From Alphaproteobacteria bacterium (GTDB lineage Bacteria > Pseudomonadota > Alphaproteobacteria > RF32 > CAG-239), in contig JAGBDC010000016.1 in assembly GCA_017937705.1 (NCBI GenBank), positions 27,518 to 91,517 of the forward strand: a stretch of DNA of 64,000 nucleotides. Direction: 5' to 3'. The notes beneath the pieces were generated by a model. The model did no database searches and was not told the DNA's origin. It saw only the letters and a program-made list of their open reading frames with translations. Shown here one piece after another: positions 1 through 46,526 of this stretch (position 1 is its first letter; each line of letters begins with the position of its first letter). The position numbers and the translations under genes are program-made.

Positions 1-3000
1 AGTTTACACTTCCTAAAGTTGATCCTGTTCCTCTTGCCTTTAACTGATCATAGTCATTGTATACCTCATCATAATTAAAGCTACTCCGATCAAAATAACA
101 ATATACTGTTGCATAACCTTCAAGTTCGCGAAAATGAACAGGGAATAAATTCCAGTAAACATCATCTTGTCCAATATCGGTGTCTAAAACTCCCAAGGAT
201 TCTGTCCAATGTGCTGCAGGATAAATGAAGCCAAGAACTGCTCCCCATCCTCCAAAGTTTTCTCTAGTACATCCGGTACTATCTTCTTGAAATTTTCCAC
301 AATAAGGAAGCACCATAGCCCTTAGCCAAGTACTTTTCTGAAATTCTAAAGGATCTATGTACCTCTCTCCTGTTACCGGATCAACATCAGCATAACTATT
401 TATGTTAAGATTTGGAACTATATCTAATTTACCATCTCCCTTGGGTATTGCTCTACCGGCAACTGCCATATTCCATCCGGCAGGTGTCAAAGTTATGGAT
501 TTTGCATATCCCGGAGGACATTGCGGAGTTGGAATAAATCCTGCGTATGGAGAAACTTCATTCCCGGCATTTTCTCCAACTTCTGTAGTAGGTATATCAA
601 CAGTATTAGGTGTCCAAGTAACATTTGGATCATAAGTAGTATCAACTACATAAATACCTTTATTAATAAAGTCAGGCAAAATATCGCTCAAACGTGCACC
701 ACCTCGAGTAGTAAGTTTAATATCATGCATTACTGAAGTATACGCAGGATTAACTTCATATCCGTCGTATGGCACATATTTTTTGGTTCCTCCTCCTAAT
801 GCATATCCTCCCTCATTACCAATATTGCTACTGCTCAATATATCACTCGGTTTATAGTGTGAAATAAATCTATCAGCAGCAATATATCCGACTGCATCAG
901 TTTCGCCATTCTCATATTGAGCATTTATTATAGTATTAGTAAGTTTTCTGTTGTTAGTTTCATCAACATTACTCTCTAATGCCATAGAACCACGGCGAAT
1001 ATAAACCGAACCGTTTTTAGAAAGACGATTTGAATTATTAACTAAGTCTGTTTGATATACCCCTTTACCACTATCAACTGTAAATACTTGAACTTTATCA
1101 GATCTATAATTATTAATTGCATATTCAACAGGGTCGTTTTGACTTGTATAAGTTGCATTAGGAGATCTAATTTGAAAAATACCAGTAGATGCATACACGG
1201 CAGCAGCAGCCCCATAATAGCCTGATCTGTTATTTTCATGATTATATCGTTTATATCCGTCATCATAAGATTTTCTCATATCAAAATTAGAATCATAAAT
1301 AGCCAATCCTCCGACAAAACGAGACGTCAGAGTTTGTGCTGACGGAATAATATCAACAATCGGATTTCCTGATGTTCCTGCAATAATAAAGCTAGAATCC
1401 GCCATATACACTCTTCCCCATGAGGTAGGACCATAGCCACCTCTATAATACTCATGTTTTCCGTCAGTAAAATAATCAGCATTATATCTATACTGATTCC
1501 AAAGCCAATTAGACATAAGATTTACTTGATGAGAAAACATATCTACAGTTTGCCAACCTAAATCGTTTTTATAAACTCTAAGCGTTTGTCCTTGAATAGA
1601 AACAGGAGCATTTGTCATATTTCCATTTTCATCAACAGTAGAAATGTTAACACCTTTTTCAGCACCTATTCTAACAATAGAATCTTCTGGAGAATCGGTA
1701 ACTTTATATGTTCTTGAAGCATCATCATAGTGTACTAAATATGCACTACCTGCGGAAATATCTACACCTCTTGCTCCGTCGAGGGCATCGGCGGTACTGA
1801 TAGAAACACCTCCGGGGATAACTCGTCCGGTATTGTCCGTTGTTTCCGTATCAGAAATAGTCATCATCGGAATTTCATTGGTACCAACAATAAAGCGGCC
1901 ACCATCTTGATCCATTTTCGCAACAGTATAAAAATCTGTATCATTTTCTGCTGTAGCAAAATCTTCAGGAGCAACACCACCACGCAAAGTTGATGCATCA
2001 ACATCAAGAGCTTTCAATTTACCCGTCAATAAAGTATCTTTAACAAAAGCAGCTCCATTAACTGATAATGCATAAAAACTTTCATTCATAGCATCCGGTT
2101 CAGGAGTATCTCCCGTCCATGCATATTCCTTATACTCTCCTTTATGAGCTTTGGCTACCCCATCATCTTTTTTAATAACAGTATACCATCTGTAATCTAC
2201 ATTTCCAGCAGTAGAATCTCTAAAAACATTCAAATGCCCATCACCAGCGCGGAATTTATCTTTATCAGCATACAATGTCTCCCCCTCCGGTTGAGCGGGG
2301 GTTGTCCCATTTGCAGGAACGGCAGATGTTCCAAAAGTCATACTTCCTGCAGATTTTACCGTTAATTTAGTTTTTCCGGCTCCGGGGTCTCCATAAACCA
2401 TCTCATCGGATGCAACTTTGAATACCGGTTTATCCGCACGCTTAGTAGTTATCGGCTTGGTACCTGTAGCAGGATCTAATGGACCTTCCACATTGGTTGT
2501 GGCAAAATATTTGATACCATCATCTTTCACCGTAAACAGAGAGTTCATAGCCTGTAAAGCACCTTCTACATAGGCACCACCACCTTTGGCAATGTATAAA
2601 GCTTTATCCAAGGTATTACCAAAACCGGCAGGATCAAGAGTATCCGCAGGAACATCTTCTTCACGGGTAGATGCAACATCGGCTCCTTTGACCATTCTAT
2701 CAACATTAGGATGCATAATGATTTGGTTTACAAGACGAATGTTTCTTGTATCTCCAACGTTATATCCCATAAATAAATCGGTTTCCATTGTGTTTAACTC
2801 ATCAGCGGCATCAGGTTCGTTTTTACGGTGCAGAACATCTTCATTAGCTAACCCTTGTGAAGAAATCGGCTGAACCGAAGAAACCACAAACGAGTTATCA
2901 ACTAATCCGCCGCCTAATTCAGATGTAGGTACACTCCAAATACCTTGAGCTCCCATAGCAACCTGCTCTGTTCCTTCCGTAGTAACATAACCACCATTAC

Positions 3001-3532
3001 TACCAATCATACTGGCAATACGAGAAGCTCGAACTGATCCTATTTCATCCGGAATTTTAGGAGTTGCGGTAACAAATCCGGTCAAGGTTTGGCTCAACAC
3101 CTTCCCCCCCTGAATATCACTTTCGAGTTTTATTATAACATTATATTCATCATCAAAAATTTTTGTTTCTCTGGGAGTTCCATCTGCTTTCAAAAAACCA
3201 TACGGCAAATAATCGCCAAAGTGAGTAATGCTAACCGGCCCTACTTGTCCTTCTGCAGCATTCTTAAAGCCGGAAAAGTCTAACTCATGTCCTGCACTAT
3301 CCGTTATTTTCTCACCCTTGGTAATGCGAGCAAAATTATCCTTCAAATAGCCATCAATTGCCGTAGACAATGCTCGCATTTGCGCAGAAGCATTAACGTC
3401 TTGCAATTCCACCGTTCTCTCCGATGCCTTTTTGTACAGCACAGGAGTAACCATGGCTATCAAGCCTAACATCGCCATTGCTTCAACCAGCAACGTACCT
3501 GTTTCATTAACCTTTTTAAATATCTTTTTCAT
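1..3532 (-). CDS. Giant protein with a prepilin-type (class III) N-terminal signal. It is 5'-complete, and its 3' end runs past the window edge (more than 1176 aa visible).
   Basis: Hand translation of the minus strand from the ATG at 3532 gives MKKIFKKVNETG|TLLVEAMAMLGLIAMVTPVLY. That is a basic leader, Gly at -1, Glu at +5 and about 20 hydrophobic residues. An AGGAGA RBS lies 6 nt upstream. The frame stays open to position 1. The mature part is rich in Gly, Tyr, Asn and Thr. It is absent from the ORF track because no stop codon falls inside the window. Confidence 0.6.
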   Translation of the reverse strand, partial: MKKIFKKVNETGTLLVEAMAMLGLIAMVTPVLYKKASERTVELQDVNASAQMRALSTAIDGYLKDNFARITKGEKITDSAGHELDFSGFKNAAEGQVGPVSITHFGDYLPYGFLKADGTPRETKIFDDEYNVIIKLESDIQGGKVLSQTLTGFVTATPKIPDEIGSVRASRIASMIGSNGGYVTTEGTEQVAMGAQGIWSVPTSELGGGLVDNSFVVSSVQPISSQGLANEDVLHRKNEPDAADELNTMETDLFMGYNVGDTRNIRLVNQIIMHPNVDRMVKGADVASTREEDVPADTLDPAGFGNTLDKALYIAKGGGAYVEGALQAMNSLFTVKDDGIKYFATTNVEGPLDPATGTKPITTKRADKPVFKVASDEMVYGDPGAGKTKLTVKSAGSMTFGTSAVPANGTTPAQPEGETLYADKDKFRAGDGHLNVFRDSTAGNVDYRWYTVIKKDDGVAKAHKGEYKEYAWTGDTPEPDAMNESFYALSVNGAAFVKDTLLTGKLKALDVDASTLRGGVAPEDFATAENDTDFYTVAKMDQDGGRFIVGTNEIPMMTISDTETTDNTGRVIPGGVSISTADALDGARGVDISAGSAYLVHYDDASRTYKVTDSPEDSIVRIGAEKGVNISTVDENGNMTNAPVSIQGQTLRVYKNDLGWQTVDMFSHQVNLMSNWLWNQYRYNADYFTDGKHEYYRGGYGPTSWGRVYMADSSFIIAGTSGNPIVDIIPSAQTLTSRFVGGLAIYDSNFDMRKSYDDGYKRYNHENNRSGYYGAAAAVYASTGIFQIRSPNATYTSQNDPVEYAINNYRSDKVQVFTVDSGKGVYQTDLVNNSNRLSKNGSVYIRRGSMALESNVDETNNRKLTNTIINAQYENGETDAVGYIAADRFISHYKPSDILSSSNIGNEGGYALGGGTKKYVPYDGYEVNPAYTSVMHDIKLTTRGGARLSDILPDFINKGIYVVDTTYDPNVTWTPNTVDIPTTEVGENAGNEVSPYAGFIPTPQCPPGYAKSITLTPAGWNMAVAGRAIPKGDGKLDIVPNLNINSYADVDPVTGERYIDPLEFQKSTWLRAMVLPYCGKFQEDSTGCTRENFGGWGAVLGFIYPAAHWTESLGVLDTDIGQDDVYWNLFPVHFRELEGYATVYCYFDRSSFNYDEVYNDYDQLKARGTGSTLGSVN

Positions 3533-24164: not shown

Positions 24165-24602
24165 TTATTCTGCTTTTTCAGCAGCTTCTGCAGCAGCTTT
24201 TTCAGCAGCTACACGAGCTTTATCTTTAGCACCTTTAGCATTAACATCTCTGTCAACCAATTCGATGATTGCCATTGGAGCCGCATCGCCATAGCGGATA
24301 CCTGCTTTTAATACACGTGTATAACCACCATTACGAGAGCTGTAACGTTCTGCCAAAGTAGAAAACAACTTAGAAACAACTTCTTCGTCGCGCAAAAAGG
24401 CCAAAGCCAAACGACGACTATTCAAATCACCTTTTTTAGCAAAGGTAATCATGTTGTCAGCAAAAGTTCTCAATTCTTTAGCACGTGGCAAAGTAATTTT
24501 GATTTGTTCATGATTCAACAATGCGCAAGTCAAGTTAGAGAACAAAGCTCTTCTTTGGCTGGTCGGCATATTAAATTTTCTATGTGCATCACCATGTCTC
24601 AT
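24165..24602 (-). CDS. rplQ: 50S ribosomal protein L17
   Basis: The conserved start is MRHGDAHRKFN. The track ORF carries a spurious 55-aa N-terminal extension up to 24767. Confidence 0.9.
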   Translation of the reverse strand: MRHGDAHRKFNMPTSQRRALFSNLTCALLNHEQIKITLPRAKELRTFADNMITFAKKGDLNSRRLALAFLRDEEVVSKLFSTLAERYSSRNGGYTRVLKAGIRYGDAAPMAIIELVDRDVNAKGAKDKARVAAEKAAAEAAEKAE

Positions 24603-24744
24603 GGCATTTTCCTTTCTTCTATAAACTGTGCTTTGACAGGCAAAGCGGATAAAACACCGGTCTTTACTACGGAGTCGCTTTGCGACCATACATAAAAACC
24701 CACTCTTTCGAAACGGCTTATAACACACAACTTTTTGAAAAGCA

Positions 24745-24776
24745 AGAAAAAACGTCACATTTTTCAATGTGACGCA
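24745..24776 (-). terminator. Intrinsic terminator of the small membrane-protein gene, upstream of the rplQ leader
   Basis: On the minus strand, CGUCACAUU-gaaaa-AUGUGACG followed by UUUUUUCU. Confidence 0.55.
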
Positions 24777-25090: not shown

Positions 25091-25173
25091 AATGTTAGTT
25101 AATAATATTCTTTAGTGGACAAATGATAGCAAATTTGATTAAAAAGTCAATAAATCAAATCAGGAGAATACAA

Positions 25174-25611
25174 ATGAAATTGCTGATACAAAGAGTAAAA
25201 AAAGCTTCGGTTAATGTAAATAACGATACTGTCGGAAAAATAGAACAAGGGATTTTAATTTTTATCGGAGTTTGCAAAGAAGATACTAAAGAACAAGCCG
25301 ATTTTCTCGCACGTAAAGCTGCAAACTTACGAATTTTTGAAGATGAAAACGGAAAAATGAATTTGTCTGTTAAAGATATAAAAGGTGAAGCATTGGTTAT
25401 CTCTCAGTTTACTCTTGCCGGAGATTGTACCCGAGGAAACCGTCCCGGATTTGACAAAGCTGCACATCCCGATATTGCCAAACCAATGTATGAATATTTT
25501 TCGGAACAATTACGTAATGAAAATATAAAAGTTGAAAACGGAATTTTTCAAGCAGATATGCAAGTAAGTTTAATTAATGATGGTCCGGTTACTTTCATTT
25601 TGGAAAAATGA
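25174..25611 (+). CDS. dtd: D-aminoacyl-tRNA deacylase
   Basis: Start at MKLLIQRVKKASV. It carries the SQFTL motif and the ...NDGPVTF C-terminus. It is oriented opposite to the flanking genes. Confidence 0.85.
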   Translation: MKLLIQRVKKASVNVNNDTVGKIEQGILIFIGVCKEDTKEQADFLARKAANLRIFEDENGKMNLSVKDIKGEALVISQFTLAGDCTRGNRPGFDKAAHPDIAKPMYEYFSEQLRNENIKVENGIFQADMQVSLINDGPVTFILEK

Positions 25612-25626
25612 TAATCATACTCAAAT

Positions 25627-26043
25627 TTAATTACAAATTTTATACAATGCATTAATTATTGTTTTAACTTTTTTAAGGTTATTCTTGTTTTGCAAAAAAC
25701 AGATGATTTCTTGCCATTTTTCTGTTTCCGAATATATATTTTTGCTAATAACAGAATAGTTATCTCCTCGAGGGCTCATTAATTTTATTTTTTCAGGCAT
25801 ATTTTCATAAAAATAACCGACCGGAACACCTAAAACCACTGAAAAATCATATAATCTACTGGCACTTATTCGATTCGCCCCGTTTTCATATTTTTGTAAT
25901 TGCTGAAAACTAATATTGATATTTTGAGCCAATCTTTCCTGAGTTAATCCTAGTTCCAGTCTTCGCAACTTTATTCTGTTGCCCACATATACATCAATCG
26001 GATTCGGTCTTCCGTCTGCTTGTTTTCCACGATTCTGTTTCAT
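25627..26043 (-). CDS. XRE-family (Cro/C1-type HTH) transcriptional regulator
   Basis: LGLTQERLAQNINISFQQLQKYENGANRIS forms a helix-turn-helix. The likely start is the ATG at 26043, with an AAGAGG RBS 5 nt upstream. The track gives an upstream GTG start. Confidence 0.7.
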   Translation of the reverse strand: MKQNRGKQADGRPNPIDVYVGNRIKLRRLELGLTQERLAQNINISFQQLQKYENGANRISASRLYDFSVVLGVPVGYFYENMPEKIKLMSPRGDNYSVISKNIYSETEKWQEIICFLQNKNNLKKVKTIINALYKICN

Positions 26044-26061
26044 TCCCACCTCTTAAAAAAA

Positions 26062-26345: not shown

Positions 26346-27356
26346 TTAGAAATGATCATCTACTCTTTTAATCAATTCTTCAATATTCTCAGGTGGCCAT
26401 CCCGGGGTATCCATACCAAGGTGAATACCCATCTTAGCCAATACTTCTTTAATTTCATTCAAAGATTTACGACCGAAGTTTGGAGTTCTCAACATTTCAG
26501 CTTCTGTTTTTTGAACCAAATCACCGATATAAACAATATTATCGTTTTTGAGACAATTTGCAGAACGAACTGACAATTCGAGTTCTTCAACCTTTTTCAA
26601 CAAATTCTTGTTGAACGGTAATTCTTCTTTTTCTTCTTCCACTTCATTTTCCGGTTCATCGAAATTAATAAACGGTTTTAATTGATCTTGAAGAATACGA
26701 GCAGAGAAAGCTACTGCATCTTCAGGGGTAACAACACCGTTTGTTTCAACAACCAATGTCAATTTGTCATAGTCTGTAACTTGACCAACACGAGTATTAT
26801 CCACACGATAAGAAACACGTTTTACCGGAGAATAAATAGCATCAACAGCTATCAAACCGATAGGAGCATCTGCTGGCTTGTTCTGACTAGCAGGGACATA
26901 ACCTTTACCTGTGTTAACAGTCAATTCCATATTAATTTTAGCACCTGCATCAAGGTTACAAATAACCAAGTCAGGGTTCATGATTTCAACATCGTGACCG
27001 GTTTCAATCATAGATGCAGTAACCGCACAAGGACCTTCTGCTTTTAATGTCATTGTTCTTGTACCTTCGCTGTGAACAGCAACGGCCAAGCATTTAACAT
27101 TAAGCACAATGTCGGTTACATCTTCTCTAACACCGGGGATAACCGAAAATTCATGTAAAACACCGTCAATCTTAATTGCGGTAACTGCACCGCCTTGTAA
27201 AGAAGACAATAAAATTCTTCTCAATGCATTACCCAGAGTAAGACCGAAGCCTCTCTCCAAAGGTTCAACAACTATTTTAGCTTTGTTGCCGCCTTCGCTG
27301 GGAACAATTTCTAAATTAGTCGGTTTAATAAGTTCTTGCCAATTCTTTTGAATCAC
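26346..27356 (-). CDS. rpoA: DNA-directed RNA polymerase alpha subunit
   Basis: Protein of 336 aa with conserved N-terminal and C-terminal domains. Confidence 0.95.
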
Positions 27357-27447
27357 TGGGATATCCTCTATTTTTTAGTGCATGCTATATTACGAAAATC
27401 AAAAGACGGCGAGGCCGACTCCTGCCAGCCCCACTATCATAAATCTA

Positions 27448-27849: not shown

Positions 27850-28218
27850 TTATTTCTTCTTATTGGCGACAGTTTTACGTTTACCCTTACGAGTACGAGC
27901 ATTTTGTTTTGTACTCTGTCCACGAACAGGTAAACCTTTACGATGTCTCAAACCTCTGTAACAACCAAGATCCATAAGTCTCTTGATGTTAACACCAACT
28001 TCACGACGCAATTCACCTTCTACGAGGTAATCACGGTCAATCACTTCACGTACTTTAGCAACGTCTTCATCAGACATATCGCCAACACGCACGTCTGGGT
28101 TGACTCCCGATTTTGCACAAATATCTTGAGCATTTTTTCTACCGATACCAAATATGTAAGTCAAAGCTATTTCAATCTTTTTGGCAGTCGGAATATTTAC
28201 ACCAGCTATACGAGCCAA
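27850..28218 (-). CDS. rpsM: 30S ribosomal protein S13
   Basis: Protein of 122 aa starting [10 protein letters not shown]. It follows adk directly, with no infA or rpmJ. Confidence 0.95.
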
Positions 28219-28342
28219 ATTTCATCTCCATTAATTAAAATATTAAACTCAAAAAGTTGATCACCACTTTTCAAAAGTTAGCCGGATTATATGCCAATAT
28301 TTGTTAGTGTCAACCATTATCTTTAAGCATTTATTAAAAAAA

Positions 28343-29026
28343 TTACAAATGCTCTTTCAAATTCAGCAGCTTATCGATACGAGCAGCGACCACATCAACC
28401 GTTCCGTTACCGTCTACACTGCGCAAAACCCCTTTATCCCGATAGTACGAAATAGTCGGATATGTAAAATCTCGATATTTCACTAAACGTTTTTCTACGG
28501 TTTCCTTTGTATCATCGAGTCGTTTTGAAAACTTAAAACCGCCACATATATCACATACACCGGCAACTTTAGGTTTATGAAACTTATCACTATAATTCTC
28601 ACCACATGTAACACATGTATAACGGCCCATGATGCGATCAACAATAATTTCATCAGGAACCAATATTTCTAAAACAGCGTCTAATTTGATTCCTTTTTCA
28701 GCGAGCATTCCATCCAAAAATTCTGCCTGCTTGATTGTTCTTGGAAAACCGTCCAAAATAAACCCATTAACACAATCAGGCTCTTCGATTCGACGAGAAA
28801 CCATTTCAATTATCAGTTCGTCGGGAGCAAAATTTCCACCAGCCAATAGCGGTTCTAATTTTTTTCCAACTTCAGAACCTTTTCGAATTTCATCTCTTAA
28901 CATTTCTCCTGCCGACAAATGGCATATACCGAACTCCCTTTTCAAAACACCGGCTTGAGTACCTTTGCCTGTTCCGGGAGCTCCGGTTATAACCAAATGC
29001 AGACCTTTATTTTGGCCTATAAACAT
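28343..29026 (-). CDS. adk: Adenylate kinase (long zinc-lid type)
   Basis: P-loop GAPGTGKGTQ with Cys4 lid CVTCGENY...CDICGG. Confidence 0.9.
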   Translation of the reverse strand: MFIGQNKGLHLVITGAPGTGKGTQAGVLKREFGICHLSAGEMLRDEIRKGSEVGKKLEPLLAGGNFAPDELIIEMVSRRIEEPDCVNGFILDGFPRTIKQAEFLDGMLAEKGIKLDAVLEILVPDEIIVDRIMGRYTCVTCGENYSDKFHKPKVAGVCDICGGFKFSKRLDDTKETVEKRLVKYRDFTYPTISYYRDKGVLRSVDGNGTVDVVAARIDKLLNLKEHL

Positions 29027-30423
29027 TATTTTCTTTTACCTTTCTTATTTACCAATGCAGCCCTTTTCAATAATCCCTCATATTGATAAGCGATAAGATG
29101 GGTTTGAACTTGACCGACAAAATCCATCGTAACCTGAACCACGATAAGTAAAGTGGTACCACCTAATACAAATGGTACAGAAAGTTTAGAAATCAACACT
29201 TCCGGCAAAATACACAAAGCAGTTAAATATGCTGCACCTAAAACTGTTAATCTGGTAATTACATAGTCTAAATATTCAGCAGTGTTTTTACCCGGACGAA
29301 TACCGGCAACAAAACCTCCGTGTTTTTTCAAATTGTCAGCAGTATCTTCAGGATTGAACACTACTGCAGTATAGAAAAATGCGAAGAAAATAATCAATGC
29401 AGAATACAATGCCAAATACAATGGCTGTCCATGACCAAGTAAACGGCTCAATGTCTGAACCCAACTTGGACCGCTATTAGCAGAAAAGTTAGCAATAGTA
29501 ATCGGCAACAACAGCAAAGAGCTTGCAAAAATCGGAGGAATAACACCTGTCGGGTTTATCTTCAAAGGCAAGTGAGAACTTTCTGCTGAAGTCATTTTCA
29601 TACCCATTTGACGCTTTGGATACTGGATAACTATTTTTCTTTGAGCTCTTTCAACCAAAACAATTACATAAACCAAAGCCAAAACCATAGCCATTAACAT
29701 CAAAATAACCCAAATAGACATAGATCCTACACGACCTAACTCAAAAGTTTGAGCCAAAGCTGTAGGAATATTAGCAATGATACCGACGGTAATAATTAAT
29801 GACGAACCATTACCGACACCTCTTGATGTAATCTGATCTCCGAGCCACACAATAAACATTGTACCGCCAACCAAAGAAACGATTGTTGTAAATCTGAACA
29901 CAAAACCCGGCATAACAACAGCTGATGCGCCACTTCCGGCAGTCATACCTTCAAGACCTACAGCAATACCATAACCTTGAATAATGGTAATCAATACTGT
30001 TAAAACTTTTGTATAGTGAACCATTTTACGGTGTCCAGCTTCACCTTCTTTTTTCAAAGCCGCCAAAGATGGAATAATAGACTGTCCGAGTTGCAAAATA
30101 ATAGAAGCCGAAATATAAGGCATAATATTAAGTGCAAAAATAGTCATACGTTCTAACGCACCACCGGCAAACATATTAAACATACCGAGAATACCATTTC
30201 GGTTATTGTCAAATATTTGAGCCAAAATATGCGGATCAATACCCGGCAACGGGATAAAAGTTCCTAAACGAAAAACAATCAAAGCCAAAATTGTAAACCA
30301 CAATCTTTTCTTTAATTCTTCTGCTTTTCCAAAGGCTGACATATCCAAATTTGCAGCCATTTTTTCAGCAAGTGATACCATTTTTATTTCCTTACAATCA
30401 TTTAAAATAAACACACAGGGCAC
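29026..30423 (-). CDS. secY: Preprotein translocase subunit SecY
   Basis: Protein of 465 aa with 10 TM helices and conserved SecY motifs. The true start is probably a downstream Met (MVSLAEK). Confidence 0.95.
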   Translation of the reverse strand: MPCVFILNDCKEIKMVSLAEKMAANLDMSAFGKAEELKKRLWFTILALIVFRLGTFIPLPGIDPHILAQIFDNNRNGILGMFNMFAGGALERMTIFALNIMPYISASIILQLGQSIIPSLAALKKEGEAGHRKMVHYTKVLTVLITIIQGYGIAVGLEGMTAGSGASAVVMPGFVFRFTTIVSLVGGTMFIVWLGDQITSRGVGNGSSLIITVGIIANIPTALAQTFELGRVGSMSIWVILMLMAMVLALVYVIVLVERAQRKIVIQYPKRQMGMKMTSAESSHLPLKINPTGVIPPIFASSLLLLPITIANFSANSGPSWVQTLSRLLGHGQPLYLALYSALIIFFAFFYTAVVFNPEDTADNLKKHGGFVAGIRPGKNTAEYLDYVITRLTVLGAAYLTALCILPEVLISKLSVPFVLGGTTLLIVVQVTMDFVGQVQTHLIAYQYEGLLKRAALVNKKGKRK

Positions 30424-30516
30424 AAAAGCCCTTTTTAGCTATGATATTAATACATCATATTTTTTTTAATTCAACTAAATAATGCCGATATTCAGCTAAT
30501 TTTTTACACATGAAAT

Positions 30517-31083
30517 CTAAAACACCCAACAGATTGTATTATTGCTGTCATGACAAAGCTCAGTTGCTTTACTTATATTTACGGCTCCCTTAAATTCATT
30601 ACCGTTTCCGGACCCTAGTGTAGCCCCCGGAGCGTTTTTATTAATAGTAATTCTTAAAGCACTTTCCGTCACAGGTAAAGATAAGAGATTTACACACATA
30701 TCTTTGGTCAAATCTCCAAAGCGAATAACAAATTCATCTTTTGACGGATCAAGGTTATGCCCCACGGAACATCTGCCGTTCAAAGCGTGATAGCAATGTC
30801 CGTCATGCAACATTTCTGTCGGCAGAACTAACTGATTAATAACTCTTTCGTTATATAAATCATTTTTATTAGGATTGCCTAACATTAATGTATTATAATT
30901 AGATATAATGGTCGATATTTGATTAGCCGCTTCATTAACCTTAAATTTTTCCATCGCTTTGGTATATCCTGCAATTCCGGCAGTAGATAAAACTCCGATA
31001 ATAGCCAACACACCTAGCATCTCAATCATTGAACGGCCTTTTTCATTATTACATTTTGAGCAAACCATATATTTAATCTCCAT
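30517..31083 (-). CDS. Prepilin-type N-terminal domain protein (type IV pilin or pseudopilin-like) inserted between rplO and secY
   Basis: ...NNEKG|RSMIEMLGVLAIIGVLSTAGIAGY has Gly at -1 and Glu at +5. The track start at 31137 lies inside the rplO terminator hairpin, so I used the ATG at 31083. The exact start is uncertain. The mature part of about 160 aa contains 5 Cys. Confidence 0.55.
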   Translation of the reverse strand: MEIKYMVCSKCNNEKGRSMIEMLGVLAIIGVLSTAGIAGYTKAMEKFKVNEAANQISTIISNYNTLMLGNPNKNDLYNERVINQLVLPTEMLHDGHCYHALNGRCSVGHNLDPSKDEFVIRFGDLTKDMCVNLLSLPVTESALRITINKNAPGATLGSGNGNEFKGAVNISKATELCHDSNNTICWVF

Positions 31084-31119
31084 CTTTTTATAAGTATATT
31101 CAAGCCTTATAAAAAAACA

Positions 31120-31160
31120 ACAAAAAAAGCAGGCCATAAGACCTGCTTTAGTTTTTGCTT
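31120..31160 (-). terminator. rplO intrinsic terminator
   Basis: On the minus strand, AGCAGG-ucuuaugg-CCUGCU followed by UUUUUUUGUUGUUUUUUU, placed 10-40 nt after the rplO stop codon. Confidence 0.6.
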
Positions 31161-31166
31161 ATTCAA

Positions 31167-31631
31167 TTAAGCGATAATGTTTACTTTACCGCCAGCTTTT
31201 TCAATTGCAGCAACAGCAGCTTTAGAAGCTGAATTTACTGAAACTGTAACAGCCGATGTAACAGCACCGCGAGCCAACAAACGAACACCATCATAGGTTT
31301 TGTTGATAAGACCTGCATTGCTCAAAGCTTCCAAATCAACGTTATCTGCTTTCAATTTTCCGGCATCAATAGCTGTTTGCAATGTGTCAAGGTTGATAAC
31401 TGCAAAAACTTTAGCAAACGGATTATTGAAACCACGTTTCGGAAGTCTGCGGTAAATAGGCATTTGACCGCCTTCAAATCCATTGATAGCAACACCGCTA
31501 CGTGATTTTTGGCCTTTTTGACCGTGGCTTGAAGTTTTACCTTTGCCACTACCAATACCACGACCAACACGAATACGATTTTTGGTTGCTCCTTGGTTAT
31601 CTTTTAATTCATTAAGTTTCATATCTTTCAC
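31167..31631 (-). CDS. rplO: 50S ribosomal protein L15
   Basis: Protein of 154 aa, conserved. Confidence 0.95.
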
Positions 31632-40871: not shown

Positions 40872-42392
40872 TTATTCAACAATCGGGAATAAAGGATCAC
40901 CGACTTTTATTGTCGAAGCTTCTTTTAGTTCAAACGGTTTAAATTCGGCCTTGAACTCATTCAATTCAACACCCAACGATGTTTCTATTTTTTCCGCAGT
41001 TGACGGAGCTAGCGGATAAAGCGCCAACCCGATTAATCTCAAACATTCCAGAGTGGTATAAACAACCGCATCAAATCTATCTTTTTGTGTCGGATCTTTC
41101 GCTAAAACCCAAGGGGTATTGGCAGCAAAATAAGCATTTGTCGCATCCCCTGCTTTCATAATACTGTCAGCAAGTTCGCTAACTGTTTCCAAACTCATTT
41201 CTTGATTATAAATACGTTCAAAACGACCGGCAATATCGGTAATGAGTTTTTTATCTTCGTCGTTTAATGCTGCTTTTGACGGAACTTTACCATCCAAGCT
41301 TTTTTGCACCATTTTCAAAACTCTCATTTGTAAGTTGCCGATATTGTTAGCCAACAATTTGTACCCTTGTTTTAACAAATCAACGCTGATTTGGCTATCG
41401 CCGGTCATAGTCATATTGTTGATGAGATAGAAGCGCAAAGCATCTACACCCAACAAATTAACAACCTCAACCGGATCAACAACGTTACCTAAAGACTTTG
41501 ACATCTTAACACCGCCTTCTCCAATCCAATAACCGTGGACAAAGCAATGTTTCACCGGATTTAAGCCTAGTGCATGCAACATAATCGGCCAATAAATACA
41601 GTGAGGTTTCAAAATATCTTTTGCAATAAGGTGATTTGAGTTTGCCCAAATATTTTCAAAATCAGGATTATGTCCGTAGTTATGAGTAGAAATGTAGTTA
41701 ACTAAGGCATCGAACCAAATATAAGTTACGTATTCTTTATCAAATGGTAGTTCAACACCAAGCCACACACGAGATTTCGGGCGAGAGATACATAAATCTT
41801 CCAAAGGCTCACGCAACATACCTAATACTTCGTTAGCAAATTTTGCAGGCTGAATCCAATCAGGATTATTTTTGATGTGCTCAATCAACCATTGACGATA
41901 TGGTTCAAGACGGAAGAAATAGTTTTCTTCACTGATTGCTTTCGGTGCAACTTTATGGTCCGGACAACAACCGTTTTCATCTAAATCGGTCTTTTTCTTG
42001 AATTGTTCGCAACCTTCACAATACAAACCCTCATAAGATTTTTTTACAATTAAACCTCTGTCATAAATATTTTGCAAAATTTCTTGCACGATTTTTTTAT
42101 GTTCCGGTTTTGAAGTGCGAACAAAATAGTCAAAATCAATACCTAAATCCACAAACAAATTTTTGAAATTATCACTTTGTTTTTGTAAAAACTCTTCAGC
42201 AGATAATCCGCTTTCTTCAATACTATGCTGATTTTTTTGACCATGTTCGTCGGTTCCGGTAGAATAAAATACATTATTGCCCCGCATTTGCTCAAACTTT
42301 TTCATGACATCGCCCAAAATAGAAGTATATGCGTGTCCGATATGAGGCAAACCGTTAAGATAATAAATCGGGGTAGTAATATATTTTTCCAT
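40872..42392 (-). CDS. metG: Methionyl-tRNA synthetase (short form)
   Basis: Start at MEKYITTPIYYLNGLPHIGHAY (HIGH motif), with KMSKS present (VKMSKSLGN). The track ORF extends upstream to 42458. Confidence 0.9.
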   Translation of the reverse strand: MEKYITTPIYYLNGLPHIGHAYTSILGDVMKKFEQMRGNNVFYSTGTDEHGQKNQHSIEESGLSAEEFLQKQSDNFKNLFVDLGIDFDYFVRTSKPEHKKIVQEILQNIYDRGLIVKKSYEGLYCEGCEQFKKKTDLDENGCCPDHKVAPKAISEENYFFRLEPYRQWLIEHIKNNPDWIQPAKFANEVLGMLREPLEDLCISRPKSRVWLGVELPFDKEYVTYIWFDALVNYISTHNYGHNPDFENIWANSNHLIAKDILKPHCIYWPIMLHALGLNPVKHCFVHGYWIGEGGVKMSKSLGNVVDPVEVVNLLGVDALRFYLINNMTMTGDSQISVDLLKQGYKLLANNIGNLQMRVLKMVQKSLDGKVPSKAALNDEDKKLITDIAGRFERIYNQEMSLETVSELADSIMKAGDATNAYFAANTPWVLAKDPTQKDRFDAVVYTTLECLRLIGLALYPLAPSTAEKIETSLGVELNEFKAEFKPFELKEASTIKVGDPLFPIVE

Positions 42393-42471
42393 TTTTAAAA
42401 CTCCTATAAAACTGTAAAACAACGGGAGATTATACCAACCCCTTGTTAAAATCAACATTTTTTAACAAAAA

Positions 42472-45400
42472 CTATCTACTTTCTCTGTCGGGACGAGATA
42501 ACGGCAATTTAATTTTGTCTGTCGGAATGTCATTTTCAACTTCGTTTATTTGCGGATTTTTAATATCATTACTTATGCAATCGAGAGCGTAGGAACGAAA
42601 TTCTTTTAACTTATCGGCACTACATCCCTTATCCGTAATCAACTCCGCATTTGTTTTGTTTTTATTCCATATTGCAATGGCATAAACTTTTTCTTCATCT
42701 TTCAAAACAATACACCTGTCGCCCTTTAACCAATCTATTTCATCTTTGCTCGAAAATAGTGAAAAAGCTCTTAAGTCTTCATCGTCACCGGCTTTAATAA
42801 CAATTCTCTCTATTGTTTCTTGATTTGCATTAGGGTTGTTTTTTATAATTCTTTGAACCTCGGCATCTGTATAACCTTCATAACCATCGGGAAGAGGATT
42901 AGTCGATGAAATTATTTGCCCCTCTAAATAGATATCATTCCCACTATTACCAACGGTTATATACTTATAATTATCTTTTGAAAACTCTTCAACCATTCCC
43001 AAAAATAAAGTTTCTACCTGTTCTTCACAATGTTCATGTGTATCGACCTCCACATTATCAAAAGTAAGGCCTTTAAAGTTACCGTTTTGGCTCGCATAAA
43101 ACCAACTGCAGGCTACAATTTTCCACGGCTCATCTTCATTTTTTCTACTCTCAAAAATTAAACATCCCGAATTAGGGTTAATAACACTGTCTACGGCACA
43201 AGGGCCACCGACATCTCCATAACTTTGGCAACAGGATGTTTTTTCTCCGACAAACAAAATTCGAACATCATCCTTTTTGGCAACCAAACATCTAAAATTT
43301 TTGTCACTGCTATAAAGAACAGGTTTATCGGCAAAACGTGAGGGAGTTATCATCCCTTTATAATAAATAACTTCTGCTTCATCGTATGTTTCTTGAGAAT
43401 CAACATAAGCAGAATTTTCAATAGCAAATTCTCTGCATGTATAATCAAAATTAATTTTTGATAAACGCTCATATACTTCGCTATATTTCATAGAGCTCAA
43501 TTCTTTATCCGTCAGATATTTCAATCGGGGGATTATTAAACTGAAATCATCTGAAAATTCCAAATCAGTACGTTCTATATCGTTCAAACTTCTTAGTCTT
43601 TTCTCTTCCAAATGAGGAGCATTAACTCGTAAAAAGGGCTGTCCGACAATATTTTTTGCCTTAATATTCTTATCTGCAAATTTTCGGATTCGTTCAAAAT
43701 CTGCTTTTGTGTTTATGGCTTTAACCATCCAACTTGTCGCTCTTTCAAAACCTATCGGTTTGAATTGTTCATCACTTATATAATTAGACGTCGCATAAAT
43801 TGTCCCTAGCAAACCATTTCTTTTGGCTGCAAGTCTGCGTCTTTCTCTTTTTATGTCAAACGACGAAGATGACAACACATTATTTTTCCATTCGTTAATA
43901 TATTTCTTAATATGAGAATCAATCTCATACAGGAACAAATTTTTCTTTAGAGCAACTCGAGCTAACAAAGCACTGTCAGGTAAATTTTCAAGACTCTTGA
44001 GAATAAAATCGGTCGCTAAGTACATAAACTCAAGTTCTTCTTTTTTATCATCATATTCATTTGACTTTTTCCAAAACTCATCTTGTCTTTTGGGAATTTG
44101 CTCATTGTAGTTTTCGATGGTTCGAAAATAATTCATATATTCTTTACCATAAATTTTGGCACACGCTATTGCAGAAGGAATAACCCATTGAGTATTGGCA
44201 TCTTCTTCTTTTTCGAAAATATATTTTTTTATATTCAAATATACACCGATGTTAAAGTCCTTACAAAAACCAGCCCCATTAGTCAGTAATGTCATTTTTT
44301 CATCAAGACTTAATTTTTGCGATGACAATATCCGATTAATATGTATTTTTTCTTCACTGGTTAATGACCGATACTCTTTTTCTATATCGGAATATTTCTT
44401 TTTCCATAATAAATGATTATCCGTCGCATATCTATATCGAGCATCCCATTTATTAAAATATTTCTTTACGGTTTCTGCCAGTTGCAATTCCACAAAAACA
44501 TTCGGCATTTTATCACCGACAGATAACAAAAAGCTTTTATACGCATCAAGCCCTATTCTGATTTCTCTATAATTCCAACGATTATTGCAATATTTTTCGT
44601 CATTCAACCAAAATTCGGGCAAAACTTTTTTATCTTTTGCTAATGCCACGCTTTTATCAGCTTGTTCCGAAAAATGAGAAGCAAACTCATTTAAAAATTT
44701 CAAAGCAGCAATTTGTCCGTCACAATCCATTTTTTGCGGAAGCATTTCAAACATCTTCAAAATACGTTCCGGCTGCACTTTAGATTTAATAGTTATTTGC
44801 TCTAAACAATTCAACATTGATGAGTATTTACATTTTTCAGGTAACACAGAAACGTATATTTTCCATATTTTAATACATTCATCTGATAATTGCGGACAGT
44901 CTTTCAAAATTGTTGCTAAAATTCTATCTATCTGATACGGAGGAATTGTCCCTGTATCATTCATTTTGCAATGATGATGAGCCAGTTTTTTAATATCTGA
45001 CACAATTTGTTTCATCATATCTTCATTATCAGGTTGTGTTGCCACATGTTCAACTATGTCTAAAACAGATTCCCAATACGTGTGAAGAAGCTGGGTTTTA
45101 GGCTCTTTAATCTTTCCAAAATTAGCAATATTTCCTTTAATACATTCAAACGCTTGTTGAAAATATCCTCTTTTTATCAATAAAGGACAAAAATTATTAG
45201 ATGTATTTTGGGCTAATAACAAAATATCCGGTATAATTTTTTCATTAGGATAATCATCCGGTAACATTTCATAAAAATCTAGAACATCACCGATAATATC
45301 GCGGTTATGAGCTACTTTTTTTATCAGTAACGGAATTTCATTGTGAAAGAGTTCAACGGCTTTATCTCTAAACTCATCATGTACAACAAAATCCATACAT

Positions 45401-46401
45401 AGTGAATTAAAATCAGGAATAACTCGTGTTTTATTTTTTTGAACCGATTGAACCAAACTAAACAAAATATTTTTATCAACTCTCGGCTCTTCTGAAAATT
45501 CTTTTGCCAACAACAGAGCATAACAACAAAACTCATCACTTATGTTTTTTTGTTTTAATTGTTTGTCAATTTTGCTTATTTCATCAATATAAATTTGAAT
45601 ACTTCGTTCATTGTGATCAGATTTGAACATATCCCCGCTGATGAAATTACCGTTTAAAGCAGCAACATTAAGAATATCCAAAGTTTTTCTTCTGATATCC
45701 GGTGTAATATTATTGGCCTTGAGAATATTTGCACATACATCAGAAATATTATCTCCGCAATCAATACTGTTTTTTATATTTTTAGCGGCAAAATCAAGAT
45801 GACTAAACAGAATATGTATATGTTCGTTATTGTTCATATCCGAAATACCGGCAAAAGCAACAATAGCATCCGTATATACTTCAGCATCTGTTTCTTCTAT
45901 AACTCTGGATGGAACAGCTCTTAACATTTTGCCGATTAGTTGTGTTTGTTCATCGATTCTGTTATCTTCATCTGCACCATCTCTGATTATATCTTTGGCA
46001 TAATCCAAAATCTCATAATATGCTTCTTTATTTCCGGTGGAGTTTGCTATTGTTTTTTCCAAAATACGTAAAGCTTCCGTAGTCTTTTTTCCCGGCCAGA
46101 CATTTCTAGAAACGCAATTTACAAATTCTCGGCTATATTCATACCCGTTTTTTTGAGAAAATTTTTCAATCAGACCTAATGTGCTATCGCTATGCAATTC
46201 GGTTAAAGTTTTATAAAAAATTTTACAGAGTTTTGAAGATGGTTTTTCAAATTTCGGAGAAGAAACAACTTTTTCCAATAAATTAATTAATTCTGTATTA
46301 CGCAAAATTACGGAAGAACATATATTACCTATAATATTTTCGCAATCTTCATTAGATTGTATCTCTGATATTTGCTGTTCAAAGCTTTTAAAAACGCTCA
46401 T
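42472..46401 (-). CDS. Very large (1309 aa) orphan hypothetical protein with no signal peptide and a Cys/His-rich C-terminal region
   Basis: The track ORF begins with TTG at 46422. A GGAGGT RBS lies 6 nt before the ATG at 46401 (MSVFKSFEQ). There is no TM helix or signal peptide. The gene is markedly AT-rich, at about 25-30% GC by eye. Confidence 0.6.
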   Translation of the reverse strand: MSVFKSFEQQISEIQSNEDCENIIGNICSSVILRNTELINLLEKVVSSPKFEKPSSKLCKIFYKTLTELHSDSTLGLIEKFSQKNGYEYSREFVNCVSRNVWPGKKTTEALRILEKTIANSTGNKEAYYEILDYAKDIIRDGADEDNRIDEQTQLIGKMLRAVPSRVIEETDAEVYTDAIVAFAGISDMNNNEHIHILFSHLDFAAKNIKNSIDCGDNISDVCANILKANNITPDIRRKTLDILNVAALNGNFISGDMFKSDHNERSIQIYIDEISKIDKQLKQKNISDEFCCYALLLAKEFSEEPRVDKNILFSLVQSVQKNKTRVIPDFNSLCMDFVVHDEFRDKAVELFHNEIPLLIKKVAHNRDIIGDVLDFYEMLPDDYPNEKIIPDILLLAQNTSNNFCPLLIKRGYFQQAFECIKGNIANFGKIKEPKTQLLHTYWESVLDIVEHVATQPDNEDMMKQIVSDIKKLAHHHCKMNDTGTIPPYQIDRILATILKDCPQLSDECIKIWKIYVSVLPEKCKYSSMLNCLEQITIKSKVQPERILKMFEMLPQKMDCDGQIAALKFLNEFASHFSEQADKSVALAKDKKVLPEFWLNDEKYCNNRWNYREIRIGLDAYKSFLLSVGDKMPNVFVELQLAETVKKYFNKWDARYRYATDNHLLWKKKYSDIEKEYRSLTSEEKIHINRILSSQKLSLDEKMTLLTNGAGFCKDFNIGVYLNIKKYIFEKEEDANTQWVIPSAIACAKIYGKEYMNYFRTIENYNEQIPKRQDEFWKKSNEYDDKKEELEFMYLATDFILKSLENLPDSALLARVALKKNLFLYEIDSHIKKYINEWKNNVLSSSSFDIKRERRRLAAKRNGLLGTIYATSNYISDEQFKPIGFERATSWMVKAINTKADFERIRKFADKNIKAKNIVGQPFLRVNAPHLEEKRLRSLNDIERTDLEFSDDFSLIIPRLKYLTDKELSSMKYSEVYERLSKINFDYTCREFAIENSAYVDSQETYDEAEVIYYKGMITPSRFADKPVLYSSDKNFRCLVAKKDDVRILFVGEKTSCCQSYGDVGGPCAVDSVINPNSGCLIFESRKNEDEPWKIVACSWFYASQNGNFKGLTFDNVEVDTHEHCEEQVETLFLGMVEEFSKDNYKYITVGNSGNDIYLEGQIISSTNPLPDGYEGYTDAEVQRIIKNNPNANQETIERIVIKAGDDEDLRAFSLFSSKDEIDWLKGDRCIVLKDEEKVYAIAIWNKNKTNAELITDKGCSADKLKEFRSYALDCISNDIKNPQINEVENDIPTDKIKLPLSRPDRESR

Positions 46402-46526
46402 ACATACCTCCGTAACGAGCAAAATGTTACCATATTATAAAAATTTTTGCAAATTATAAAAAAGTTCTTTATTTTTCAAAAAAATATGTTATATGTTGAC
46501 TATTCTTTCATATTAAGTTTTTGAAA

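Follow-up and report, generated by a model that had tools for sequence, protein, structure and literature searches.

A type IVb-family pilin gene in the spacer between rplO and secY of an uncultured gut alphaproteobacterium

Layout of the rplO-secY locus

The stretch of DNA analyzed here, referred to as the window, comprises 64,000 nucleotides (nt) of contig JAGBDC010000016.1 (assembly GCA_017937705.1), and all coordinates are positions in it unless a contig is named. Its minus strand carries a gene for a type IVb-family pilin between the ribosomal protein gene rplO and secY: rplO (31631..31167) is followed by a hairpin and U-run (31149..31111), the pilin open reading frame (ORF; 31068..30517) and secY (30381..29026), after which come adk, rpsM, rpsK and rpoA in that order. 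A first-pass annotation, made from the sequence alone, had placed a gene between rplO and secY, and this is the order that we see. At least 10 independent assemblies of the same species share this rplO-pilin-secY order, and the arrangement is therefore no assembly artefact. The features that define the junction are these:

31167 to 31631, minus strand: rplO (ribosomal protein L15; Pfam Ribosomal_L27A, 1.4e-21), with which the spc-type cluster ends in this clade
31111 to 31149, minus strand: intrinsic terminator after rplO, with a 10-bp stem, a 4-nt loop and a U-rich tail
31078 to 31081, minus strand: Shine-Dalgarno sequence GGAG, 9 nt 5' of the ATG at 31068
30517 to 31068, minus strand: type IVb-family prepilin gene encoding 183 amino acids (aa), assigned from Pfam, profile, fold and dN/dS evidence
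29026 to 30381, minus strand: secY (Pfam SecY, 6e-106)

The mechanical ORF call for the pilin (31137..30517, 206 aa) begins within the rplO terminator hairpin, and the suspicion voiced in the first-pass annotation that this start is artefactual was well founded. In the five nearest pilin homologues (69-91% identical) the Gly is preceded by 7-11 leader residues, and two of the five are 183 aa long, the length given by a start at 31068; the conspecific allele on contig L001, introduced below, has GAGG in the same place as the GGAG of the window. Given the leader lengths of the homologues and the GGAG before the ATG, the product is taken to be 183 aa long and to start at 31068, so that the size of about 190 aa first proposed needs correction, whereas the prepilin N-terminus quoted with it was accurate. 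An in-frame ATG at 31083 may be an alternative start, which would give a 16-aa leader. For rplO, homologues begin at 31622 (151 aa), as against the ORF call at 31631, and the L15 protein is 100% identical in conspecific contigs.

The spacer ORF encodes a type IVb-family pilin

A class III signal peptide has a short hydrophilic leader ending in Gly at position -1, a Glu at +5 and a hydrophobic tract of about 21 residues (PMC4471445). The N-terminus of the window pilin, MVCSKCNNEKG/RSMIEMLGVLAIIGVLSTAGIAGY, is built in this way, with a leader of residues 1-11, G11 at -1, E16 at +5 and a hydrophobic run (alpha1N) spanning residues 17-34, and the cleavage site predicted from the sequence lies between G11 and R12. 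Across 80 family members, Gly11 and Arg12 (+1) are each kept in at least 90%, and E16 is invariant in all. In type IVb pilins the residue at +1 is not Phe, and Arg12 of the window pilin agrees with this. Cysteines are found at positions 3, 6, 92, 100, 125, 172 and 180; C125 and C172, which are invariant across the same 80 sequences, may form the disulfide that brackets the C-terminal D-region in type IVb pilins.

The profile evidence reaches beyond the N-terminus. Pfam matches to PilS (2.2e-9, 37.9 bits, cut-off 22) and Bundlin (9.5e-6, 26.4 bits, cut-off 22.3) span residues 42-182, corresponding to the globular domain; NCBIfam gives weak N-terminal matches alone, for example to the pseudopilins GspG and GspH. 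In an hmmsearch of the Protein Data Bank (PDB), a profile of the 80 family members matched BfpA (1zwt) at 4e-17 over chain residues 10-156, TcpA at 2e-5 and PilS at 4e-4. The AlphaFold (AF2) model calculated from the 80-member alignment (predicted local distance difference test, pLDDT, 77.5; predicted template modelling score, pTM, 0.67) has a helix at residues 12-64 and then a beta-sheet, which is the extended N-terminal helix on an antiparallel beta-sheet of the pilin fold, and each of the 15 PDB matches that Foldseek ranks best for this model is a type IVb pilin (TcpA, CofA, the type IVb pilus of enterotoxigenic Escherichia coli (ETEC) and S. Typhi PilS). Judged by its sequence profiles and predicted fold, the ORF at 31068..30517 encodes a type IVb-family pilin; the profile and fold searches thus agree with the pilin-like assignment of the first-pass annotation.

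Set beside BfpA of enteropathogenic E. coli (EPEC), TcpA of V. cholerae, CofA and LngA of ETEC, and PilS of S. Typhi and R64, the window pilin has the same Gly at -1, Glu at +5, long N-terminal helix and alpha-beta globular domain, the same two conserved Cys bracketing the C-terminal region, and the same non-Phe residue at +1. It differs from these major pilins in that sequence identity is only 11-17%, in having Arg at +1, in a 30-residue N-terminal segment that is nearly invariant across thousands of paralogues, and in being encoded by a solitary gene outside a pilus operon. Its leader is also shorter, 11 aa (6-12 aa in the family) versus about 15-30 aa (PMC4471445). The historical definition of type IVb pilins by a leader of about 15-30 aa and a prepilin of 180-200 aa is no longer strictly valid (PMC4471445); the 183-aa prepilin falls within this length range, and the leader of 11 aa (16 aa if counted from the ATG at 31083) is not of the long kind.

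Purifying selection and allelic exchange at the pilin locus

For comparison within the species we used the conspecific contig L001, whose L15 is 100% and SecY 99.3% identical to those of the window. The flanks of the two loci are collinear at 97-100% identity; by segment, nucleotide identity is 96-100% upstream and 96-100% across the spacer and the 5' end of secY, and between these lies an island of about 31102..30504, holding the pilin, in which identity per 100 nt is 81-89%. By the Nei-Gojobori method the two pilin alleles have a synonymous divergence (dS) of 0.95 and a non-synonymous divergence (dN) of 0.075, giving a dN/dS of 0.078 from 63 synonymous and 31 non-synonymous differences; dS is 0.07 for rplO and 0.28 for secY. 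Within pilin codons 11-45 there are 14 synonymous and 2 amino-acid changes. The low dN/dS, and the predominance of synonymous changes even in the invariant segment, indicate that the pilin is under purifying selection; positive selection is ruled out by the dN/dS of 0.078, and relaxed selection is likewise rejected.

Every contig that has an identical L15 and reaches past rplO carries an intact PilS/Bundlin gene before secY. The pilin falls into two allele classes, 83-87% identical in nucleotide sequence, on backgrounds in which rplO is 98-100% identical, and because the high divergence is mostly synonymous and confined to the pilin, we read the island as the result of exchange of long-diverged alleles by recombination. 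Between the window (28343-30381) and L001, secY and adk have a dS of 0.28-0.37, versus 0.03-0.07 for the ribosomal genes on either side, a mosaic suggesting either that recombination tracts extend past the pilin or that codons are more strongly constrained in the ribosomal genes.

A tandem pair of pilins is found in one contig of a conspecific metagenome-assembled genome (MAG):

L103, positions 1980 to 3480 (GCA_054284945.1, JAZTDT010000041.1): tandem pilins

Here rplO and its terminator are followed by a frameshifted pilin of the type represented by paralogue P0005 (86% DNA identity to paralogue locus L087), then by a second, diverged copy of the region upstream of secY together with secY codons 1-19, which continue in frame into a window-type pilin (99%), and last by the genuine secY. 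On sequence grounds the pattern fits the import of a foreign segment, consisting of a pilin plus a secY 5' end, through one homologous and one illegitimate junction; if such a segment was imported, there is another lineage, too, in which a pilin directly precedes secY. The tandem pattern could instead be a mis-assembly.

A mobile cassette or insertion element as the origin of the gene was considered and rejected. No direct or inverted repeats bracketing the pilin gene were found, the paralogue loci L004 and L087 have no flanking sequence in common with it, their homology stopping at the ends of the coding sequence, and of 80 stretches in viral contigs that matched a search pattern none was confirmed by tblastn as a viral relative of the pilin.

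A very large family of mostly solitary pilins

Of 8,000 candidates scored in a search for the pilin family, 7,861 proteins reached E <= 0.001. The named sources are nearly all Alphaproteobacteria MAGs, and the members belong to uncultured gut Alphaproteobacteria of low G+C content, with records labelled "uncultured Azospirillum sp." or Candidatus Scatocola; we found nothing specific in the literature on this pilin family in RF32-type gut alphaproteobacteria. The segment GRSM(V/I)EMLGVLAIIGVLS..GIAGY.KAM is invariant or nearly so in the family, and in the globular part identity falls to about 35%. Because paralogues and alleles differ by many synonymous changes in the invariant N-terminal segment, we rejected gene conversion as an explanation for its invariance.

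Among the copies examined, most stand alone or as tandem pairs amid housekeeping genes. Paralogue P0004 (71% identical) is in tandem with another pilin, far from ribosomal genes, P0005 (69% identical) lies just after atpC, and P0008 (50% identical) is at another unrelated locus; further copies are found beside dsbA (L097:8990-10579, a DsbA-family gene), after a Na+/H+ exchanger gene, and between yacG and an Elm1-like gene, where ffh follows about 1.6 kb downstream (L111/L112:10001-13408). Some solitary pilins lie near genes that a prepilin needs: directly upstream of secY in the window (29026-31068), about 1.6 kb upstream of ffh (SRP54, L111) and next to DsbA (L097), and prepilin insertion uses SRP, the signal recognition particle, together with Sec (PMC4471445). 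The proximity may be a coincidence, these being simply busy housekeeping loci.

Family members also occur beside pilus genes. At three loci of related genomes (L107, L109 and L110), genes for TcpQ, Secretin, PAP_PilO, an unknown protein, T2SSE and T2SSF are directly followed by Bundlin/PilS family genes, and L107 has a second T2SSE gene (320 aa) nearby. By their sequence content, these operons hold the genes of a type IVb pilus machine, in an order that we take to resemble that of R64 pilN-pilS and of the toxin-coregulated pilus (TCP). In the comparison with R64 pil and TCP-type operons, then, same-family pilins do follow such genes at these loci, whereas the window has none of them. No Peptidase_A24 gene was seen in the flanks of the three operons as retrieved. 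The operon ATPase belongs to a family of 2,879 members at E <= 1e-50, and the named members of one close ATPase cluster come from MAGs labelled Azospirillum sp., Rhodospirillales and Alphaproteobacteria. Paralogue P0038 is 59% identical to the operon-adjacent pilin of L109, yet solitary in a conspecific MAG; a link between the type IVb machine and this species by way of P0038 was discarded, as its locus in that MAG holds solitary pilins only.

We consider the window gene to be, probably, a functional solitary paralogue of this very large type IVb pilin family, with a bundlin/PilS-like globular domain, lying in a terminator-promoter spacer that existed before it. Its prepilin would be inserted via SRP and Sec, a prepilin peptidase would cleave it after Gly11, and a type IVb machine whose genes lie elsewhere would polymerize the mature pilin, either alone or in a mixture with paralogues. 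The invariant N-terminal (alpha1) segment could act as a common assembly interface, letting any paralogue use the same machine, and the variable globular domain would alter the surface of the pilus. Several observations weigh on the other side. The 11-aa leader is short by the historical definition of type IVb pilins, and Arg at +1 is unusual for a substrate of prepilin peptidase; a scan of about 40 ORFs of the 64-kb window revealed neither type IV pilus machinery nor a prepilin peptidase, and no pilus machinery lies within 10 kb of three other solitary paralogues in conspecific MAGs; and a consensus promoter scan gave no convincing promoter for the pilin, the TTGTTT/TATACT pair described below not being reported by it.

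The gene might alternatively be a decaying relic of a transferred gene, or encode a pilin-like protein that forms no filament, such as a type II secretion pseudopilin, in either case without a pilus function. Its solitary position with no machinery nearby would suit this, as would the weak N-terminal matches to GspG and GspH and the frameshift in one of the tandem copies of L103, but against it stand a dN/dS of 0.078, a frame that is intact in all conspecific contigs, a globular domain that matches major type IVb pilins (BfpA residues 10-156 at 4e-17; TcpA, CofA and PilS by fold) and family members that stand directly after an operon for a type IVb-type secretin, PilO, ATPase and platform protein. 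We therefore regard both versions as unlikely.

The break after rplO is older than the pilin

In E. coli the spc operon (rplN...rpmD-rplO-secY-rpmJ) is described as a single operon of twelve genes (PMC3616713). The window retains the order from rplN to rplO and then secY; in contrast to E. coli, however, a terminator follows rplO in this clade, a promoter-like element stands before secY, variable cargo occupies the spacer, and in six related species (L015, L017, L022, L023, L024 and L026) rplO was not found within the 0.7-3 kb upstream of secY.

The terminator hairpin, AAAGCAGGUC-UUAU-GGCCUGCUUU at 31149..31126, has 10 pairs, 5 of them G-C, and is followed by UUUUGUUGUUUUUUU. The 66-nt stretch that contains it folds at -21.8 kcal/mol, as against -10.0 +/- 2.4 kcal/mol for dinucleotide shuffles (z = -5.0, with 0 of 200 as good), which bears out the strong intrinsic terminator of the first-pass annotation. 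RNAfold predicts a G+C hairpin directly 3' of rplO in all 15 close relatives, with a U-run after most of them and with stems that differ in sequence. Terminators were scored by a rule requiring a stem of at least 6 pairs with at least 3 G-C pairs and at least 6 T in 8. Ten of the 12 closest relatives (SecY 84-94%) that keep rplO beside secY pass this rule, with or without an insert; both loci at 70% SecY identity fail it, the U-run after their hairpins being weaker, and among more distant alphaproteobacteria it is passed by only 2 of 58, the genomes of this group being G+C-rich, which possibly lowers detection. A search of the spacer for known RNA elements in Rfam gave sub-threshold, chance-level matches over the terminator and nothing more.

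Downstream of the pilin, the following features bear on the transcription of secY and of the genes beyond it:

30448 to 30474, minus strand: promoter-like element of secY, sigma-70-like, with TTGAAT at 30474..30469 and TGTATTA at 30454..30448
30417 to 30432, minus strand: small G+C hairpin of the secY leader, AGGGC-UUUUGU-GCCCU, with a U-rich stretch and the Shine-Dalgarno sequence AAGGA after it
28286 to 28313, minus strand: rpsM promoter from the consensus scan, a perfect sigma-70 consensus, TTGACA-16-TATAAT (12/12)

In 17 of 23 relatives, the pattern TTG(A/C)A(A/T)-N13-15-(T/G)GTAT(A/T)A stands 62-71 nt ahead of the secY start, and these relatives include L007, L015, L017, L022, L023, L024 and L026, where no rplO was found upstream; on both strands of the whole window the pattern is observed twice, against 0.41 expected. 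Between this element and the Shine-Dalgarno sequence, predicted single-sequence folds contain a G+C stem-loop in 20 of 20 sequences, with stems of GGGC, GGGG, GGGA or GGGU, which could be a leader attenuator or a stabilizer of the mRNA; RNAalifold on a MAFFT alignment of the secY leaders returned no pairs, because MAFFT left the hairpin arms out of register. The perfect consensus promoter upstream of rpsM argues that the alpha-operon genes have a start of their own, and the rpsM leader has a sub-threshold Rfam match to Alpha_RBS (28278..28186; 27.5 bits against a gathering score of 38; E 0.006). Further downstream, between rpsK and rpoA, a strong hairpin at 27409-27434 has 11 pairs, 7 of them G-C, and then a short U-run.

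The junction between rplO and secY was surveyed in one genome per GTDB species. A pilin is present there only in the same species (SecY 99% identical), and sister species (SecY 84-95%) have unrelated genes or none:

L008, SecY 94% identical, spacer 1041 bp: Xre-type helix-turn-helix (HTH) gene on the opposite strand
L009, SecY 94%, spacer 985 bp: unknown 246-aa ORF on the opposite strand
L011, SecY 88%, spacer 969 bp: two small ORFs
L013, SecY 85%, spacer 893 bp: gene for a 67-aa membrane protein
L014, SecY 85%, spacer 1553 bp: NUDIX and GNAT genes
L012, L016, L018-L021 and L025, SecY 84-86%, spacer 106-273 bp: no gene

From this comparison of sequences, the rplO-secY spacer is a variable landing pad for cargo genes, with contents that differ from one species to the next, and the pilin occupies it at the species level. 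The arrangement is not an ancient conserved one, and in this sense the first-pass annotation was right to describe an insertion into the cluster.

That annotation also held that the insertion itself had cut the spc/alpha transcription unit, leaving secY-adk-rpsM-rpsK-rpoA dependent on the promoter of the pilin gene or on read-through of the terminator. We find this improbable, even though the rplO terminator is strong, the pilin gene is without a strong terminator of its own, so that its transcripts probably run on into secY, and distant alphaproteobacteria mostly have only 46-290 bp between rplO and secY, with a canonical terminator in 2 of 58. The terminator is found in 10 of the 12 closest relatives, six of them without an insert (including L012, L016, L020, L021 and L025); the position of the secY element is kept in 17 of 23 relatives, even where secY is unlinked from rplO; and rpsM has its perfect consensus promoter. 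As far as the sequences of the clade can tell, the terminator and the promoter-like element of secY predate the pilin, and since both occur in relatives without a pilin, we place the break in the ancestry of the clade and the pilin in a spacer that was already there. Without a strong terminator of the pilin gene, pilin transcripts would at most add to the transcription of secY.

The ribosomal gene cluster is rearranged elsewhere too. Between rpoA (27356..26346) and rplQ (24767..24165) of the window lie an Xre-type HTH gene on the minus strand (26049..25627) and dtd on the plus strand (25123..25611), so the ribosomal super-operon is cut at more than one point; an Xre-type HTH gene is found both in this gap and in the spacer between rplO and secY of L008. 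Instead of tuf or fusA, metG (42458..40872) and a 1316-aa ORF (46422..42472), which had no Pfam match at E <= 0.001, precede the S10 cluster, and at L091:17796-20663 rpsM-rpsK-rpoA is preceded by a FGase gene and not by secY-adk. Compared across these sequences, the ribosomal cluster has been repeatedly rearranged in the clade.

Expression of the pilin gene

Two features lie in the 57 nt that separate the terminator hairpin from the ATG of the pilin:

31093 to 31120, minus strand: candidate pilin promoter, tentatively assigned, with TTGTTT at 31120..31115 and TATACT at 31098..31093 separated by 16 nt; it overlaps the U-run of the terminator
31085 to 31115, no strand assigned: perfect 10-nt A+T inverted repeat, TTTTTATAAG / CTTATAAAAA, 11 nt apart, spanning the candidate promoter

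The 57-nt stretch is conserved in the diverged L001 allele, in which the candidate promoter is identical, and the inverted repeat, which has one mismatch in L001, could be an operator or could be due to chance. As the consensus scan had passed over the hexamer pair, the pilin is perhaps expressed through a weak promoter, read-through of the terminator, or both. Transcription would then start at a weak promoter that overlaps the tail of the terminator, or enter the gene by read-through from the heavily transcribed rplO, and would probably continue into secY, supplementing the promoter of secY and not replacing it.

Comparison with other pilin repertoires and significance

Neisseria keeps a multi-copy pilin repertoire, made up of pilE plus silent pilS cassettes. 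The gut pilins share with it the dispersed copies, the conserved N-terminus with a differing exposed C-terminal part, and allelic replacement at a fixed locus, but differ in that every copy is a complete gene with a start codon, a leader and a Shine-Dalgarno sequence, and in the many synonymous differences among paralogues. Since the copies are complete and these differences are many, the conservation of the N-terminus is better ascribed to selection on the protein than to conversion from silent cassettes.

A more speculative reading, to which we give little credence, is that the dispersed pilins form a combinatorial system of surface variation: complete genes with an invariant assembly segment, deliberately sited in terminator-promoter spacers beside highly expressed housekeeping operons, each variant being dosed by read-through of a different growth-linked operon. 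The sites that can be cited for it are the rplO-secY spacer, the position behind atpC, and those near ffh and next to dsbA. New variants would be captured at such spacers by homology-facilitated illegitimate recombination, as the foreign pilin with its donor secY fragment in L103 suggests.

That the locus is a chimera of assembly or binning, joining a pilin fragment to the ribosomal cluster, is highly improbable, for although the source is of metagenome type and a multicopy family with an invariant 5' segment could mislead assemblers, both junctions recur in the at least 10 independent assemblies, which come from different samples and assemblers and include a 713-kb scaffold, with flanks collinear at 97-100% identity.

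We return to the reading of the gene as a functional solitary pilin in a pre-existing spacer. So understood, the pilin arrangement is real but fairly ordinary. A gene in the most conserved of bacterial gene clusters looks disruptive, and it is tempting to over-read it in this way, yet the cluster had already been cut throughout the clade, and the ancestral cut has become a site at which cargo genes are gained and lost. What is of mild interest is the size and dispersal of the pilin family, the Arg at +1, the short leader and the fragmentation of the ribosomal-protein super-operon, which is unusual in its extent in this gut lineage. Uncultured and poorly studied gut Alphaproteobacteria carry more than 7,800 database proteins of this kind, type IVb pilins with a near-invariant N-terminus that are mostly encoded by solitary genes, and the family is relevant to adhesion in the gut.

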